38,471 nt of DNA, from the UHGV virus genome UHGV-0091782. One strand, given 5' to 3'. Positions 12,513 to 38,421 of the stretch are shown piece by piece. Position 1 is the stretch's first letter. The number at the start of each line of letters is the position of its first letter. The notes below the pieces were generated by a model. The model was given only the letters and a program-made list of their open reading frames with translations. It was not told the origin of the DNA and did not search any database. The DNA is from a virus. The position numbers and the translations under genes are program-made.

Positions 12513-14348
12513 TTACCTGCCAAAGCGCGTATAGCCAACATCATGGCTGACATCAAAACCGCTGGATCGCGTTTCCATAACCCGCATCCCCGGAGGCGAA
12601 TTCACAAAAGAGACCTTGATCTCACCATCAACTTTTGGCGCAGAAGCTTTGTTAATCATGAAGGGATTCGGGCCTGTGGCACCGGAGGCGTTGTTTGACT
12701 GAGCCGGATCCACCGCCGGATAAGGTGTGTATCCCCGCGCCGGTATTCCCGTCCCATAAGCATCATAAGCACCCGCGCCCCACTGCGCAGAGTTAATGGC
12801 ATCGACCGTGTCACCGGAACTGTCGGTAAACCACTCAATAATTGGCTTCAGCTTGTCCCACATATCCTGAAACCACTTAACAACCGGTCCCCAGTTATTG
12901 ATCACCATCCCCAGCGGCGACCAGGCAAAAACCTTCTTAAGAAGTTCCCAGCCAGTCTCAAAATAAGGACCAATGGTTTCCCAGAGTTTCTTAAAATAAG
13001 GTCCGACAACATCCCAGTTAGTGATAATTAATCCCGCAGCCAGGGCTATCGCCGTCGCAATCATGCCAATCGGCGTCATCGACATGATCCTGCTGACAAT
13101 ACTGATGGCACCGCCAACGCCCATCAATCCCAGTTTCAGAATCGCAAGACCGGCAGCAAGCCCGACGACGCCGCGAATAACCCGGGGATTTTCATCCGCA
13201 AACTTCGTGAATTTCTCCCCCAACTCCCCCAGCCATTGCGTGATATTTTTAGCGTCACCAGAAAATGCGCTGCCAATAGCCGCAAGGCCGTTAGTTGCGG
13301 TCCCTGTCATTGCCTCCCACAGGTTGGACAGCGTACCAAGCTGTGCCTGAACACGTTTATTCAGGCTGGCCTGTTTATTCATCTTCTGCTGGATCTGATC
13401 GTAGCCATCCTTTCCTTTATCGATTAGTGCATTGACCACCTGAAGGGTTTCGGCATCATCACCAAATATTGCCTTAAGTACACCAGTTCGTTTAACGTCG
13501 GTCAGTTTCCGCAGCTTTGCCAGTTGCCTGAACATGTTATCAAGACCGCCAAAACTCCCTTTGCCGTCAGTAAAATCGAGCTGTACCCCGAGTTTCTGGC
13601 GGGCCATGATTTTATTGACGTCCCTGATTTTCTTAACGCTTAATCCGGACTGGATAACTTTTCGCAGGGCATTACCTGCCGACTCCCCGTTCATCCCCAT
13701 CTGATCCATCATGACGCTGATAGGGGCAAGGCTCTGTGCAGCCTGAAGTCCGTCCTTATTCACCATCTTCAGAACAGAACTGGTTTTAGTGAAGAAGGAC
13801 AACATGTTGGTATCGTCAACGCCCAGATAAAACGCTTTCTGGATAGTGTCGAACAGCCCCATCATGTCTTCTGACGCCGTTCCGGTAGCATCCTGCATCT
13901 TTGCGGCAAACTCGGCAGCCGCTTCCGGTGTTTTTTTCAGTTGTACCGCAAGATAAGCTGTCGCTTTACCCACACCGCCAAGAATGTTTTCTGCCGGGAT
14001 CCCCTGACGCACCAGCATCTGCATCATGTTCTGGAAATCAGCCGTTGTCCCGGGTAGCTGGTTACCCAGGCCAATAGCCAGTTTATTGATGTCCTGAAAG
14101 CGCTTTCCAACCTCGCCGTTCGCATCCATCATGGCGACTTTCAGCCCGGTGGCGGCGTTTTCCTGATCGGCATAAGATTTCAGGGAAAGCGTCAGACCCG
14201 CTGCCAGTCCGCCACCAAGCGCCAGCCCACCCTGTGACGCTTCTTCCGCCTGGCGTTTAAATCCCCGGATTTTCTTTTGCATTTTCGACAGCGCGGGAGA
14301 AAGCCTGTCGACACCGGTGATCAACGCCTTAAGCTCAAATTCAGCCAT
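12513..14348 (-). CDS. Tail tape measure protein
   Basis: 611 aa, Ala/Gly-rich helical N-terminal part and W-rich repeats (KLWETIGPYFETGWELLKKVFAWSPLGMVINNWGPVVKWFQDMWDKL); preceded by a frameshifted chaperone gene. Confidence 0.8.
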   Translation of the reverse strand: MAEFELKALITGVDRLSPALSKMQKKIRGFKRQAEEASQGGLALGGGLAAGLTLSLKSYADQENAATGLKVAMMDANGEVGKRFQDINKLAIGLGNQLPGTTADFQNMMQMLVRQGIPAENILGGVGKATAYLAVQLKKTPEAAAEFAAKMQDATGTASEDMMGLFDTIQKAFYLGVDDTNMLSFFTKTSSVLKMVNKDGLQAAQSLAPISVMMDQMGMNGESAGNALRKVIQSGLSVKKIRDVNKIMARQKLGVQLDFTDGKGSFGGLDNMFRQLAKLRKLTDVKRTGVLKAIFGDDAETLQVVNALIDKGKDGYDQIQQKMNKQASLNKRVQAQLGTLSNLWEAMTGTATNGLAAIGSAFSGDAKNITQWLGELGEKFTKFADENPRVIRGVVGLAAGLAILKLGLMGVGGAISIVSRIMSMTPIGMIATAIALAAGLIITNWDVVGPYFKKLWETIGPYFETGWELLKKVFAWSPLGMVINNWGPVVKWFQDMWDKLKPIIEWFTDSSGDTVDAINSAQWGAGAYDAYGTGIPARGYTPYPAVDPAQSNNASGATGPNPFMINKASAPKVDGEIKVSFVNSPPGMRVMETRSSGFDVSHDVGYTRFGR

Positions 14349-14759
14349 GTGTGCGTTTCTCCTGCTCTATCCTGTTTGCCTGACTGACCAGTAAGGGAAT
14401 TTCACTGATCGGCATATTCAGCAATTCGAAAGGATTAATGCGCCAGTAGCTGGCGCAGTCAAAGAAGCGATCAGTGAGGTATTCAGCCGTCAGGCCTGGA
14501 GGAAAAAACCGGCCACAAGCCACGCCGCTGCATTCAGGTCTGCCGGAGACATCTGGTCGACAGAGCTTTGCGGCACTTTCGCCAGCCGCACAATGTATTT
14601 CGACACCACATGCGCCAGAAGTCTGACTGACTCATCCTGATTCATCTGGTAGGGATACCCCAGCTCGCGGACATCCTTCCCGGTGGGCTCATCAAACTCC
14701 AGTACGGAGAGTGTCTCGCCATGAGCAGTAATCGGTTTCTTTAACTCAAGCTCTTTCAT
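14341..14759 (-). CDS. Tail assembly chaperone, extended product made by programmed -1 ribosomal frameshift
   Basis: The -1 frame after the slippery site reads FFPPGLTAEYLTDRFFD..., identical to ORF 14341..14523; analogous to lambda G/GT. Confidence 0.55.
14490..14759 (-). CDS. Tail assembly chaperone (short, in-frame product)
   Basis: 89-aa ORF between the tube and tape-measure genes. Confidence 0.65.
   Translation of the reverse strand: MKELELKKPITAHGETLSVLEFDEPTGKDVRELGYPYQMNQDESVRLLAHVVSKYIVRLAKVPQSSVDQMSPADLNAAAWLVAGFFLQA
14502..14508 (-). promoter_or_regulatory. Slippery heptamer T-TTT-TTC (programmed -1 frameshift site) 4 codons before the chaperone stop
   Basis: Minus-strand codons GGT TTT TTC CTC CAG GCC TGA; plus-strand gaaaaaa at 14502-14508. 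Confidence 0.55.
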
Positions 14760-15115
14760 TACTGGTAATCCCCTTCTTCACCGTGGAACTCAAGATCAAC
14801 CGTGCCTTCTTCGGCATTATGGTTCGCTTCGCCGTGCAGCCAGGCAGACGACAGTACATAGACCTGACCGTTCGCCAGCTCGGCAGTGATGGTCATCTCA
14901 TCAGACGAGGTGATTTTGCTCACCGGAAAATTCTTCGGCACCTTGAAGGTCCCTTTAACATAAGGCGCACGGTGAGTTTCCTTGCGGTCCACTGAACCGT
15001 CCAGGCCGATGATGTCATCATTGACCGTCCTGTTCATGGGCACCTCAATGCCGCCGGTCAGCGATAGCTGCTGACCGTCAATTTTGAAATAACAGGTTCC
15101 CCCGATACGGGCCAT
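14759..15115 (-). CDS. Tail tube protein
   Basis: 118 aa, directly downstream of the sheath gene with ATGA overlap. Confidence 0.7.
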   Translation of the reverse strand: MARIGGTCYFKIDGQQLSLTGGIEVPMNRTVNDDIIGLDGSVDRKETHRAPYVKGTFKVPKNFPVSKITSSDEMTITAELANGQVYVLSSAWLHGEANHNAEEGTVDLEFHGEEGDYQ

Positions 15116-16611
15116 TATGCGGACTCCTCTGAATACTGAAGACGGAACTGGTTAACCACGGCAAAGACACGCAACTGGTTAACATAGTCAGGCGGGAACA
15201 GCGTGTTCAGGCGGTTCGGATCGCTGGCATCACGCTCCACAACCAGGTACTGCTTGAACAGTTCGTAGTTTTCCACGATCCCCGCACGCTCGAGCTGACG
15301 GTAGGTTGCCAGCAGTTCCCCTTTGATCACTGCCGGGGTGACAATCGCCTGACCGGGACCAAAGCGGGTACCGTCACTGGCAAGCTTGTGACGCCCGTAC
15401 TTACTGGTAATGACGGATTTCAGTTTGCGCAGTACATACGCACTGGTATGCAGCGTCTCGCTGTCGAGGTAGCTGTTATCCGCAACCCCGTAAGCGTTTT
15501 TCCTGTACGTGGTGACATCACGCTGAATGCGCAGTACCCCGCTTTCGACATACGCCGTTGCCACGCCATGAGACAGCAGGGTCTGTTGTTCGGTCATCGT
15601 GAACCGTTTCCCCTTCGGCGCAGGCAGCATACCCACCAGCTCACCGGTCTGCGTGGGACGTGCCGGATCGTTGCGGATAAACACTGCTGCGCGGGCGGTA
15701 CGGCTTGCCGCCAGCTCGTCGGCAGGCGTCTGGGTCTCTTTTTCGTACCCCGCCAGGGTGATGTGCTGCTGGTTAAACTGGTCACCTGCGTTCACCAGTT
15801 CTGACAGTGTGCCGGTCTTTGCCGTATACACATGACCATACAGCTGACGCGCATAGCTCCAGCGACCGCTGGTATCGTTCATCTCGGTCACCAGCGTGTT
15901 AACGGAGGCCGTGTCGTTGAACGGCAGGCCGATATAATCAAACGGCTCATCCGCCATTGCAGCCACCGCGCCAGTGAGAACAGGAGAGCCCGTTCCTGCG
16001 GTCCCCGTCGCCACGGCAATCTGTACGCCCGCAGGCAGCACTTCGCCCCCACCAAAGCCGTAGTAATTGAGGCTGACAGGAATTTCATTCCCGCAAAGCC
16101 CCTTATGACGCGCGGTCAGTGTGACCACGCCTGCCGAAGATGAGGCCGTAAACGGCAGGGCCGGAACGGCATTGATGGCATCCTGGATACTGCTGGCAAT
16201 CGTCGCGACGTTATCGCCATTGGTCACCGGTGCCTGCACGCGGGTACGTCCCACATAAACATTCACCGTGCCGGTTTCGGTTGCCGCCCCGGTCACCGTC
16301 AGCGTAACTGTTGCTGCCGCGCCCGTGGATTCAGGAACGGCAATCACATACAGCTCGCCAAACGGGTCGGTCTGGCGATAAGCCTCGACCATACGCGCCA
16401 GCTGACTTCCCGCACCACAAATCTGGCGTGCATAGTCTGCCGATGGCATCAGCACCAGACTGTTGGCAACAATCTCTGCACCGTTATTGGCATGACCAAT
16501 CAGCAGCGATGCTCCGCTGTCCTGTGCAGTATTCGCCGCCTGGTTATCCATTTCCGCATAAAACAGCGGAACCAGCGTATTCGACGGAATGGTGTTAAAG
16601 CTTATCGTCAT
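15115..16611 (-). CDS. Contractile tail sheath protein
   Basis: 498 aa; conserved C-terminal sheath region; sheath-tube-chaperone-tape measure order. Confidence 0.85.
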   Translation of the reverse strand: MTISFNTIPSNTLVPLFYAEMDNQAANTAQDSGASLLIGHANNGAEIVANSLVLMPSADYARQICGAGSQLARMVEAYRQTDPFGELYVIAVPESTGAAATVTLTVTGAATETGTVNVYVGRTRVQAPVTNGDNVATIASSIQDAINAVPALPFTASSSAGVVTLTARHKGLCGNEIPVSLNYYGFGGGEVLPAGVQIAVATGTAGTGSPVLTGAVAAMADEPFDYIGLPFNDTASVNTLVTEMNDTSGRWSYARQLYGHVYTAKTGTLSELVNAGDQFNQQHITLAGYEKETQTPADELAASRTARAAVFIRNDPARPTQTGELVGMLPAPKGKRFTMTEQQTLLSHGVATAYVESGVLRIQRDVTTYRKNAYGVADNSYLDSETLHTSAYVLRKLKSVITSKYGRHKLASDGTRFGPGQAIVTPAVIKGELLATYRQLERAGIVENYELFKQYLVVERDASDPNRLNTLFPPDYVNQLRVFAVVNQFRLQYSEESA

Positions 16612-22077: not shown

Positions 22078-23811
22078 TTAAAGCGAGCGGATCCCATAGG
22101 ACTCAATGTGGTCAGACAGCGTGTCTTCTTTCTCGTACAGCATGGCTCTGCCAACCGCCATAATCAGCGCAACTGCACCGTCAATTTTGTTTTCCGCCTG
22201 CTCTTTGACGGGTTTCACCACATCATCGTTACCCGGAATGGTTTTGCCGACCACATTGCCGATACACCAGGTCATGATGGGATTGCCATCATGATGAAAG
22301 CGCCCCGATTCAATTGCCGCTTCCAGCTCTTTCATCGGGTCGGACATGTTGGTGTAGTTCTGAATGATAGTGACGGGATTCAGGTCTTCATCAGCAAGGT
22401 CATGTGACAACCCGGTCGCCCCGAAGGGGTCGATGGGTGACTCACTGACCGGGCTGATTTTGTTCGCCGCTTTGGCCTCCTCGAGGATGTAGCGATAATC
22501 CACCTCCGCACCATCGGTAACGGTCAGAACGCCCATTTCCACCCATTTCTGAAAGCGTTCGGCTGTCCGGCGATCTTCATTTTTCTCGACGCTGTACACC
22601 GTGTCATACGGTACCCAGAAACGCGGGGCCACACTGTAGTAATGCGTTTTACCGTCAATCTCGCGGGTATAAAGTCGCGCCATGCTGTTCATATCCAGCT
22701 TACGCGCCAGGTCAAAGGCCAGAATGCACGGCTGCCCCTCGAACTGCTCAAGGGTCAGTGATTTATCCTCGCAGCTCTGCCAGCTCACCAGGTTGAAATA
22801 CGCCGAACGCGCCGACACCCAGATATTGAGGTGTTTTGTTTTAAAGACGTTTGCCAGACGGGCGTTATTTTTCGCACGCTGCTGCTGACTTAACAAAAAT
22901 TCGCGATAAACCGACACGCCAATATTCGGGTTAGCTTTTTCCAGCACCTGCGGGTCGGTCCAGTCATCGCCTTCGTCAACGGTATAGATGATCCCGAACA
23001 GTTCATCGTTGGGTACCGAACCGTTGAGCATCTCGATAACTTCCCGCCGCTTGTCGTAGCACGGCCCCTCAATGTTGTACCCGGCGGTGGTGATGGCCCA
23101 CATCAGTGGCTGACGTCGCGCGCCCATCCCGGTAAGCATCGTGGTATAAAGCGCATCGGTGGCGTGCTCGTGATATTCATCCACCACGGCACAGTGGGGT
23201 GATGAACCATCACCGGGGTTACCGATCAGCGGTTCAAACCGCGCGCCATCCTCCGGACGGTTCATGTTTGAGGCGTTAACCTCAATCCCGAACGCTTCCG
23301 TCAGCATGGGTGTGCGTTTACACATCAGTCGCGCCGGGCGAAAGACTTCCCACGCCTGTTTCTCTGTCGTGGCACCGGAATACACTTCCGCGCCAAACTC
23401 GTTATCACAGGCAAAACAATACAGGGCAACACCGGCAGAGATTGCCGATTTGCCGTTCTTACGGGGGATTTCGGTATACACCTCCCTGAAGCGGCGCAGC
23501 CGGGAGCCTTTATTGACCCAGCCAAACGCACAGCAGATCACAAAGAGCTGCCACGGTTCCAGCGTGATGGGCATCCTCTTGAATGCCCACTCCCCCTTGG
23601 TGTGTGGCAACAGCTGAATAAATTTCGCGGCCCGTTCAGCCAGGTCCTTGTCGAAGCGGTAACGAAACGACTTACTTTTTTCCGCCATCAGGTCATCAAG
23701 ATGGCGCTGGCAGGCCTGAATCACAAACTGGCAGGCCACAATCTTTCCGCGCACGACATCACGGGCATACTGATTGGCAGCATTTACGTTGGGGTAAGAT
23801 TTCCGGCTCAT
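22078..23811 (-). CDS. Terminase large subunit
   Basis: 577 aa with ATPase and nuclease regions typical of Terminase_1-type large subunits. Confidence 0.9.
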
Positions 23812-24302
23812 GATTCGATGATTTTCAGAAACGGGTTAGTGGCTTTCTTCTGCCCCGCCAGGCCAATCAGACGCTGGCGGCTGCTGGGGTCGAGTCCGAG
23901 CATTGCCCCCGTACTGCTCATCTCGGACTCCTGTTCTTTTTTGGCGGTCAGCTCCGGATTTTTGACCATACCGCCCATTGCACCGGTGATGGTGTTGCCC
24001 TGTCTGGCAATATTTTTCACGGCACGTCGCCAGAACTCGTAGGCCACGCACCACCGCTCAAGCACCGCGAGGTCAGTCACGCACAGCAGGCCCTGACCGC
24101 AGAGTTCTTTAGTTGTCAGTTGCCACATGATCGTAGCGAGAGGGAGATCTTCTTCAGCGAACCACTCCGGTGGCTCAACACCTTTGATGGGCGTAAAAAC
24201 AGGTTCATCTTTATTCAGGGCTCGCTTGCCGGGGTTTCCGGCCAGCGCCTTGCGCGCCGTTGGCTTGGGGCGACGCCCGGAACGCCCCGCCGTTCCAGCC
24301 AT
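23808..24302 (-). CDS. Terminase small subunit (P27-family-like)
   Basis: [27 protein letters not shown]... N-terminus; start placed at ATG 24302 with AGGAG upstream. Confidence 0.7.
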
Positions 24303-36690: not shown

Positions 36691-37031
36691 CAACCGAAAT
36701 TAACTACCATGCACTGCTTGAGCGCGCACGGAATAAAGTGCAGAGCATTGAGTTCGCCTTAACACAGAGTGCATTCGCTGAGATTCGCGCTGAGCTTGAA
36801 AATGATTTAGAACTGGCACGGATTGCACTGGCATCTCTGGAAGTTGAGCCAGATGAACGCGCAGCCTATGAATTATTTATGGAAAAGCGTTTCGGTAAAA
36901 CAGTCGATCGTCGGAGAGCAAAAAACGGCGATAACGAATACATGGCATGGGATATGACTCTCGGTTGGATCGTCTGGCAGCAACGAGCTGGTATCCATTT
37001 TTCAACAATGTCACAGCAAGAGGTGAAATAA
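36687..37031 (+). CDS. Hypothetical early protein (114 aa)
   Basis: ORF track; ATGA/TAATG coupling with neighbours. Confidence 0.45.
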   Translation: MTTEINYHALLERARNKVQSIEFALTQSAFAEIRAELENDLELARIALASLEVEPDERAAYELFMEKRFGKTVDRRRAKNGDNEYMAWDMTLGWIVWQQRAGIHFSTMSQQEVK

Positions 37032-37381
37032 TGGAGCCATACAGCCTCACACTCGATGAGGCCTGTCATTTTCTCAAGATATCCAGACCGACTGCCATTA
37101 ACTGGATACGCACAGGGCGTCTTCAGGCAACACGCAAAGATCCCACTAAGAATAAATCTCCTTACCTCACAACACGACAAGCCTGCATTGCGGCTCTTCA
37201 GTCTCCGCTGCATACTGTCCAGGTGAGCGCGGGTGATGGCATAACAGAGGAAAGAAAATGTCACTCTTCCGCAGAGGTGAAATATGGTACGCCAGTTTCA
37301 CATTGCCGAACGGTAAAAGATTTAAACAGTCTCTTGGAACAAAGGACAAAAGGCAGGCGACAGAACTCCATGACAAGCTAA
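37031..37381 (+). CDS. xis: Excisionase (P22 Xis-like), overlapping the start of int
   Basis: [33 protein letters not shown]... HTH typical of excisionase/AlpA-type proteins; AGGTG upstream. Confidence 0.7.
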
Positions 37382-38421
37382 AGGCTGAAGCATGGCGGGT
37401 CAGCAAACTTGGTGAAATACCTGATATAACGTTCGAGGAAGCGTGTGTCAGGTGGCTTGAAGAGAAAGCACATAAAAAATCACTGGACGATGACAAAAGC
37501 CGGATCGGATTCTGGCTTCAACATTTCGCAGGAATGCAACTAAGAGACATTACTGAATCAAAAATTTATTCAGCAATGCAGAAAATGACGAACCGGCGTC
37601 ATGAGGAAAACTGGAAACTCAGGGCAGAAGCATGCAGAAAAAAAGGGAAACCTGTTCCAGAATACACGCCAAAACCAGCGTCCGTTGCAACGAAGGCTAC
37701 GCATCTTTCATTTATAAAGGCCCTACTAAGAGCCGCAGAGCGTGAATGGAAAATGCTGGATAAGGCACCAATTATTAAAGTGCCTCAACCAAAGAATAAA
37801 CGGATCCGCTGGCTGGAGCCCCATGAAGCACAAAGGCTGATTGATGAATGTCCGGAGCCATTAAAGTCTGTTGTTGAATTTGCACTGGCAACAGGCTTAA
37901 GACGCTCGAACATCATCAACCTTGAATGGCAACAAATAGACATGCAGCGCCGGGTGGCATGGATAAACCCGGAAGAGAGTAAATCAAACCGCGCAATTGG
38001 CGTTGCGCTGAATGATACTGCATGTCGCGTATTGAAAAAACAAATCGGGAATCATCACCGTTGGGTATTTGTGTACAAGGAAAGCTGTACCAAACCAGAC
38101 GGAACGAAAGCGCCAACGGTCAGGAAGATGCGGTATGACGCAAACACAGCCTGGAAAGCGGCGCTGAGACGGGCTGGTATTGATGATTTCAGATTTCACG
38201 ACTTGAGACACACCTGGGCAAGCTGGCTGGTTCAAGCCGGAGTCCCGTTGTCAGTGTTACAGGAAATGGGAGGCTGGGAGTCTATCGAAATGGTTCGTCG
38301 ATATGCTCACCTTGCACCTAATCACCTTACCGAACACGCACGGCAAATAGACTCGATCCTGAACCCATCGGTCCCAAATTTGTCCCAGTCAAAAAATAAG
38401 GAAGGTACTAATGATGTGTAA
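37258..38421 (+). CDS. int: Tyrosine integrase (P22 Int-like), transcribed toward the att site
   Basis: [24 protein letters not shown]... N-terminus and C-terminal ...[42 protein letters not shown] catalytic region (R, H-x-x-R, Y); 14 nt from the tRNA 3' end. Confidence 0.9.

Follow-up and report, generated by a model that had tools for sequence, protein, structure and literature searches.

The DNA analysed here, UHGV virus genome UHGV-0091782, is a stretch of 38,471 nucleotides (nt), referred to below as the window and numbered from its first letter. It carries a prophage of the SfV/SfI/SfII type with a Mu-like contractile tail module, and its tail region is 97.6–98.2% identical over the whole length to SfI, SfII, SfV and Escherichia phage vB_EcoM-689R6. 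The subject of this work is the gene for the tail assembly chaperone, which lies between the tail tube and tape measure genes. We conclude that this gene is very probably decoded in two ways through a -1 ribosomal slip at the heptamer T_TTT_TTC, yielding an 89-amino acid (aa) chaperone and a 139-aa fusion in which the chaperone is continued by an extension read in the -1 frame. A programmed -1 frameshift at this place had been proposed in an earlier, sequence-only reading of the window, and that proposal is supported by the conservation of the arrangement, by the codon periodicity of the -1 frame, by the lack of a conserved start codon for the extension and by homology of the fusion with E+E' of phage P2.

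Organisation of the chaperone locus

The genes and features of the locus are listed below in the direction of transcription, each with the evidence on which it was called.

15115–16611, minus strand: tail sheath gene, 498 aa (PF04984, PF17482 and PF17481; 'Similar to Mu GpL' in the SfV record)
14759–15115, minus strand: tail tube gene, 118 aa (PF10618 Tail_tube, E=2.4e-33)
14490–14759, minus strand: tail assembly chaperone gene, short frame-0 product of 89 aa (open reading frame (ORF), translation, Pfam and PHROG)
14502–14508, minus strand: slippery heptamer T_TTT_TTC (register checked by hand and by script)
14341–14502, minus strand: -1 frame extension, 53 codons (PPGLTAEY...EKRTHG) followed by TGA (translation)
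14439–14457, minus strand: clade-specific conserved hairpin of 8 base pairs (bp) (alignment and synonymous-site constraint)
14359–14363, minus strand: AGGAG ribosome binding site of the tape measure gene (sequence; columns conserved in the alignment)
12513–14348, minus strand: tape measure protein gene, 611 aa (ORF; PF10145 and tape measure PHROGs)

The chaperone ORF runs on the minus strand from an ATG at 14759 to a TGA at 14492–14490. Its product matches Pfam family PF10109 (Phage_TAC_7, 'Phage tail assembly chaperone proteins, E, or 41 or 14') with E=1.9e-16 and a score of 60.3 bits, the cut-off being 25; residues 4–86 of the chaperone align with profile positions 2–78 of 79. Together with the location of the gene between those for the PF10618 tube and the PF10145 tape measure protein, this match supports the identity that had been assigned to it earlier. 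The chaperone falls in PHROG 166 ('tail protein') and is named 'phage tail assembly protein' in RefSeq.

The frame-0 end of the chaperone gene reads GCC GGT TTT TTC CTC CAG GCC TGA. Direct reading of the minus strand places the heptamer, T(14508) TTT TTC(14502), exactly where the sequence-only reading had put it, in the canonical X_XXY_YYZ form and in the correct register for tandem -1 slippage. The P-site codon is TTT and the A-site codon TTC, both for Phe, and a -1 slip would bring re-pairing on TTT TTT. The heptamer had been described as lying four codons before the stop, which is right if the stop itself is counted as the fourth codon; strictly, three sense codons stand between the two. 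After the slip the -1 frame reads F F P P G L T A E Y L T D R F F D... (in full, PPGLTAEYLTDRFFDCASYWRINPFELLNMPISEIPLLVSQANRIEQEKRTHG). It comprises exactly 53 codons (14502–14344), as previously claimed, and ends at a TGA at 14343–14341 that overlaps the ATG of the tape measure gene (14348) by 8 nt (ATGGCTGA). The AGGAG of the tape measure gene lies inside the extension, 10 nt upstream of this ATG. The +1 frame past the heptamer shuts after about 8 codons. The predicted fusion of chaperone and extension would be 139 aa long, with the junction peptide ...LVAGFFPPGLTAEY... / ...AAWLVAGFFPPGLTAEY....

Two overlapping ORFs (the chaperone, 14490–14759, and the -1 ORF, 14341–14523) are therefore placed between the tube and tape measure genes, which is the layout of the G/GT-type (Xu-Hendrix-Duda) frameshift of long-tailed double-stranded DNA phages. 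The slip site of that type is present as well, in the form of a T_TTT_TTC that stands just ahead of the first stop and is kept in relatives. Structural searches with the fused protein were uninformative: a sequence-to-PDB profile search returned nothing at E<0.1, and an AlphaFold2 model made without an alignment had a predicted local distance difference test (pLDDT) score of 46.5 and was unusable.

Conservation of the slip site and the extension

We compared 11 phages with hosts among Enterobacteria, Pantoea, Edwardsiella, Burkholderia, Pseudomonas and Bordetella, and located their heptamers by script. A T-run heptamer, which may be T_TTT_TTC, T_TTT_TTT or T_TTT_TTG, occupies the same alignment column in 10 of the 11, the exception being Mu. 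The -1 extension of these relatives is 50–64 aa long and, relative to the tape measure start, its end falls between -8 and +2 nt; most of them show an identical 8-nt overlap between the extension stop and that start. The frame-0 tail past the heptamer differs among the compared phages, from 3 to 21 codons. When the hypothetical 139-aa fusion was used as a tblastn query against 50,697 phage records, it was matched in two pieces lying in different frames. Such matches were found at 67–88% identity in EPP-1, AH07 and the SfV group, and at about 40% identity in ST64B, phiP27, SfIV, F1055, 118970_sal3 and the Burkholderia phage BgVeeders33. The heptamer, the length of the extension and its endpoint at the tape measure gene are retained in relatives down to roughly 30–40% protein identity.

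A genome scan was seeded with a 3-sequence alignment, a 10-sequence alignment having proved too diverse to serve as seed, and it gave 13 loci, one of which was spurious (L108). The arrangement is kept in all 12 true relatives, which are spread across bacterial species and include loci from Edwardsiella, Buttiauxella, Scandinavium, Citrobacter, Atlantibacter, Kluyvera, Erwinia, Pantoea and Shigella. Viral contigs tell the same story, with the arrangement present in 77 of 80 contigs of the SfV type, in 80 of 80 of the Pseudomonas DVM-2008 type and in 80 of 80 of the phiP27/ST64B type (237/240); a scan of viral contigs with the Bordetella-type chaperone gave no relatives.

Two further groups of database entries were looked at separately. 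In one IMG/VR contig (L021) the extension diverges past ...NPFELLN and the -1 frame is open for 508 codons, which suggests that this copy of the prophage has been rearranged or has taken up an insertion. Six database 'proteins' of 107–139 aa (P0001–P0006) seemingly fuse chaperone and extension. We rejected them as assembly artefacts, each coming from a single short contig, with several scattered indels among them; the three that cover the whole fusion (P0001–P0003, 137–139 aa) are not natural in-frame fusions.

Constraint on the heptamer and on the -1 frame

The codon that supplies the first T of the heptamer encodes Gly, Asn, Arg, Ser, Pro or Asp depending on the clade (GGT, AAT, CGT, AGT, CCT and GAT), and it is always of the form NNT. 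An 11-nt block, GGTTTTTTCCT, is invariant in 13 sequences that share 69–83% nt identity, and adjoining third positions vary. Among 12 SfV-clade sequences (roughly 70–83% nt identity) the degenerate codons that never vary number 14 of 132, and four of these are adjacent to one another, namely GGT TTT TTC CCT. This pattern indicates that the constraint at the slip site acts on the RNA and not on the protein alone.

Past the frame-0 stop, variable sites are distributed over the three -1 codon positions as 28/48, 18/49 and 40/49, a substitution periodicity of the kind shown by protein-coding sequence read in that frame. The ten fused proteins can be aligned over their full length, and A103, P110, L95, A128 and R130 are conserved in the extension. 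Pro-Pro-Gly motifs slow ribosomes and the one found right after the slip (14494–14502, minus strand) is a possible stalling motif; it is not conserved, relatives having PQG, PSG or PAG at this place.

A protein-coding -1 ORF might in principle be an independent small gene of 60 aa with a start of its own. A GTG is indeed present in the -1 frame at 14523, the GenBank record of vB_EcoM-689R6 annotates the -1 ORF as a separate 'hypothetical protein', and PHROG 32181, a family of 63 positions and unknown function, matches this ORF (14341–14523) at E=4e-40. However, no Shine-Dalgarno (SD)-like sequence is found ahead of GTG 14523, conservation begins exactly at the heptamer and not at an upstream start, and the relatives compared have no conserved start codon for the extension. 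One locus (L106) has no start codon anywhere in the -1 ORF. In F1055, SfIV, ST64B, phiP27, BgVeeders33, DVM-2008, PG1, PBb002, AH07 and several enterobacterial loci, no ATG, GTG or TTG precedes the conserved N-terminal half of the extension. A second ORF that appears to have no translation start of its own is again what is found in the G/GT type. We regard a separate gene as very improbable, and PHROG 32181 appears to have been built from a mis-called frameshift extension.

Relationship to characterised frameshift systems

The system closest to the one described here is that of phage P2, in which a -1 shift at TTTTTTG in the production of E and E+E' is established (PMC3091744). The P2 genes concerned belong to the FETUD tail operon. 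The P2 record annotates E (91 aa) and E+E' (142 aa, a joined coding sequence with the remark 'site of -1 translational frameshift') as essential tail proteins, and the P2 site reads GTC GGT TTT TTG TCG. Aligned by hhalign with P2 E+E', a profile of the ten fused proteins gave a probability of 95% and E=3.5e-8 over 122 columns that extend across both parts of the fusion, and the two slip sites fell in one column (GFF|PPG against GFL|VAE).

The likeness extends to many details. Both chaperones belong to PF10109, GGT TTT TTC here corresponds to GGT TTT TTG in P2, and the products of 89 and 139 aa compare with 91 and 142 aa. In each case the fusion stop overlaps the tape measure start by 8 nt (in the P2 sequence, L109, E+E' ends at 858 and T starts at 851). 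Both phages are myoviruses in which the chaperone gene stands between the tube and tape measure genes and in which no proximal stimulatory structure is evident. They differ in the A-site codon, which is TTC (Phe) here and TTG (Leu) in P2, and in the number of sense codons from heptamer to stop, which is 3 here and 6 in P2. Identity in the profile alignment is only about 21%. Furthermore, the tail module that surrounds the element is Mu-like (with a sheath similar to Mu gpL) rather than P2-like, and a conserved hairpin 45 nt downstream is peculiar to the SfV clade. Judged by these comparisons, the element in the window is a member of the P2 E/E+E' family set in a Mu-like tail module.

Lambda, from which the G/GT type takes its name, is more distant. 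Its G and GT products are made at a ratio of about 30:1, G binds the tape measure protein and T binds the major tail protein; P2-like phages shift two- to threefold more, and the frameshift in the tail chaperone is widely conserved in long-tailed phages (PMC5009743). Both lambda products are required for tail assembly but neither is present in mature virions (PMC5009743), so that mass spectrometry of virions, which had been suggested as a check, would be a poor test of the fusion. What the window shares with lambda gpG/gpGT is the placing of the chaperone gene directly ahead of the tape measure gene, a -1 shift predicted to occur at low level close to the 3' end of the chaperone gene, and a long product that has its N-terminus in common with the short one. 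Lambda differs in being a siphovirus with the heptamer G_GGA_AAG, and no sequence relationship to gpG was detectable in a Pfam scan (E<=0.1), in which only PF10109 was matched. The description of the arrangement upstream of the tape measure gene as 'G/GT-type' in the sequence-only reading is thus sound as to logic and position, but its closest model is P2 E/E+E', and lambda G/GT is a functional analogue and not a member of the same sequence family.

Mu resembles the window in its neighbouring genes (Mup38-like, sheath L, tube M, tape measure gp42, N and P), and '41' is among the names in the title of PF10109. Nevertheless, Mu gp41 (144 aa; Mu 23552–23986, L095) contains no in-frame X_XXY_YYZ heptamer and uses a -2 rather than a -1 shift (PMC2628397, PMC5009743), whereas the slip site in the window is of the P2 type and the conserved extension lies in the -1 frame and not in the -2 (+1) frame.

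A different route to the same 139-aa fusion would be transcriptional slippage, in which RNA polymerase adds an extra U on the T6 run and standard translation then enters the -1 frame. The slip site is a homopolymer run, T6 here and T7 in the ST64B/phiP27 clade, and a one-base insertion gives an identical protein, so that sequence analysis cannot separate the polymerase route from the ribosome route. On the other hand, transcriptional slippage in bacteria has been described on runs of 9 A or T (PMC5009743), of which six or seven fall short. The codon register is conserved, every clade having the first T as the third base of its codon, and this register is needed for tRNA re-pairing but not for polymerase slippage. 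In addition, both the P2 record and the literature (PMC3091744) treat the homologous site of that phage as a translational frameshift. We consider the polymerase route highly unlikely and prefer a -1 slip of the ribosome at T_TTT_TTC.

Points against the frameshift and expectation by chance

Several observations weigh against a programmed frameshift at this locus. In-frame X_XXY_YYZ heptamers number 64 per 14,607 codon positions in the window (ORFs of at least 100 aa, both strands), and at about 10% of codon positions the -1 frame is open for at least 53 codons; the single-sequence pattern of a heptamer with an open -1 frame is not rare in one window and is only suggestive. The canonical heptamer, about 250 nt into the chaperone gene, is lost in three of the 80 SfV-type contigs. 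The downstream stimulatory structure that the sequence-only reading had proposed to look for was not found: there is no conserved stable structure 5–9 nt past the heptamer, no conserved upstream SD-like element and nothing structural that is conserved across clades. Apart from that of P2, none of the GenBank and RefSeq records inspected for the SfV clade and its relatives annotates slippage; each of them gives the 89-aa product alone or has the extension as a hypothetical protein of its own. A search of the literature available to us gave no description of a shift in the SfV clade.

Taken to its limit, the frequency of such patterns would mean that the heptamer and the open -1 frame coincide without function and that the 89-aa protein alone matters, and it accords with this that public annotations carry the short product only. 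Because heptamers and long open -1 frames are common in the window, the case for the frameshift rests on comparison. The slip site is kept at synonymous positions across six different preceding amino acids, and the length and endpoint of the extension are conserved over clades that infect Proteobacteria at 30–40% identity. The extension is moreover under protein-coding constraint, and P2 E+E' is a homologue of the fusion. Taken with the family assignment and with the place of the gene between tube and tape measure, this conservation puts the site far beyond chance, and the likelihood of mere coincidence seems to us negligible. Two further heptamers near ORF ends in the window, by comparison, merely run into overlapping neighbour genes.

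The three contigs without the canonical heptamer (L023, L054 and L060, all from IMG/VR) have GGG TTT TTC or GGG TTT TTT CTC in place of GGT TTT TTC. Their extension ORF is intact, the contigs are otherwise near-identical, and a single-tRNA Z_ZZN slip site is left, a kind that has been described as a minimal -1 site (PMC5009743). They could be decaying prophages, sequencing errors or cases of weaker, single-tRNA slip sites.

With regard to structure, the locus does not have the composition of a stimulated -1 programmed ribosomal frameshifting cassette, that is, a heptamer followed by a spacer of 5–9 nt and a stem-loop or pseudoknot. Near the slip site only a weak 4-bp stem is present, and it is not conserved. 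That a proximal stimulatory structure should be missing is usual for such phage sites, including P2 and its relatives (PMC3091744). E. coli dnaX also has a tandem-slippage heptamer that is read by bacterial ribosomes, but differs from the locus described here, in which neither an upstream SD-like element nor a stem at 5–9 nt is conserved and the one stem that is conserved lies at a distance of 45 nt. A pairing between the U-run/CCU at the slip site (14501–14508) and the AGGAG region that serves as ribosome binding site for the tape measure gene (14357–14364), about 140 nt apart, was predicted by RNAalifold. We did not rely on this long-range pairing, in which changes are one-sided (G-U/A-U) only and no compensatory pairs occur.

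A separate observation concerns the Burkholderia phage BgVeeders33 (L090), which has a 6-bp hairpin (GGCGTC-TCA-GACGCC) 9 nt past its T_TTT_TTC. The spacing is roughly canonical, and this hairpin could be a stimulator specific to that phage.

Elsewhere in the window, a T_TTA_AAC at 37315–37321 (plus strand) lies in frame in an excisionase ORF (36947–37381, HTH_17). Its -1 frame runs for 364 codons and enters the overlapping integrase ORF (37258–38421, PF00589), and the signal is most likely simply the xis/int overlap.

A hairpin specific to the SfV clade

The conserved stem of the SfV clade starts 45 nt 3' of the heptamer, within the -1 extension. It is formed by the RNA UGCGCCAG-CUA-CUGGCGCA (DNA TGCGCCAG-CTA-CTGGCGCA), a GC-rich hairpin of 8 bp with a stability of about -13 kcal/mol, and it is unique in the window. 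The hairpin is invariant in the 12 sequences of the clade, and the degenerate stem codons TGC, GCC, TAC and CGC are among the 14 of 132 that do not vary; the loop codon varies (AGC, AGT or AGA), and so do both flanking codons. It is missing from the ST64B, phiP27, Pseudomonas, Burkholderia and Bordetella clades. An Rfam search of region 14200–14800 produced one sub-threshold chance match and none for the hairpin. Because the stem never changes there is no covariation, and the evidence for the hairpin consists of synonymous-site constraint only. A search of viral contigs for the hairpin pattern gave 105 of 120 matches in the same gene context, the rest being unrelated GC-rich sequences, and was set aside as circular when used as a test of conservation.

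There is some small likelihood that the hairpin is a functional RNA element, which may tune expression at the junction of the chaperone and tape measure genes. A classical stimulator role is unlikely because of the distance of 45 nt. The hairpin might influence the ratio of long to short product from this non-canonical distance or, alternatively, it might determine how stable the tape measure message is, or how it is processed or translated; this message starts about 90 nt further on.

A model for expression of the chaperone

In the model that we favour, most ribosomes would stay in frame 0 and terminate at 14490, giving the 89-aa chaperone. A minority would slip back by one base with two Phe-tRNAs on TTT TTC (14508–14502), re-pair on TTT TTT and read 53 codons in the -1 frame, giving the 139-aa fusion that ends on the start codon of the tape measure gene. 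In this model we infer that it is the ribosome that slips, how often it does so and what the products bind. By analogy with lambda gpG/gpGT and P2 gpE/gpE+E', the N-terminal part common to both products would bind the tape measure protein and the extension would recruit the tail tube subunit. On the same analogy, the long product would have to be made in a small and fixed proportion to the short one for the tail to reach the correct length, and neither product would stay in the virion.

Implications for annotation and for Mu-like tails

The slip site is an ordinary and well-known phage feature that has gone unannotated in databases, and biologically it holds nothing unexpected. The SfV RefSeq record has an unannotated gap between orf13 and orf14, and PGAP names only the 89-aa 'phage tail assembly protein'. 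A 601-nt probe around the site has matches in 1,086 of 5,426 complete E. coli genomes. The value of the finding lies mainly in annotation repair for this very common type of E. coli prophage and also for the Shigella serotype-converting phages. Recognising the fusion fills a seemingly non-coding gap of about 140 nt and supplies the likely tube-recruiting domain for the Mu-like tail. It also widens the range of the P2-type slip site to include Mu-like tail modules, although Mu itself uses a -2 shift.

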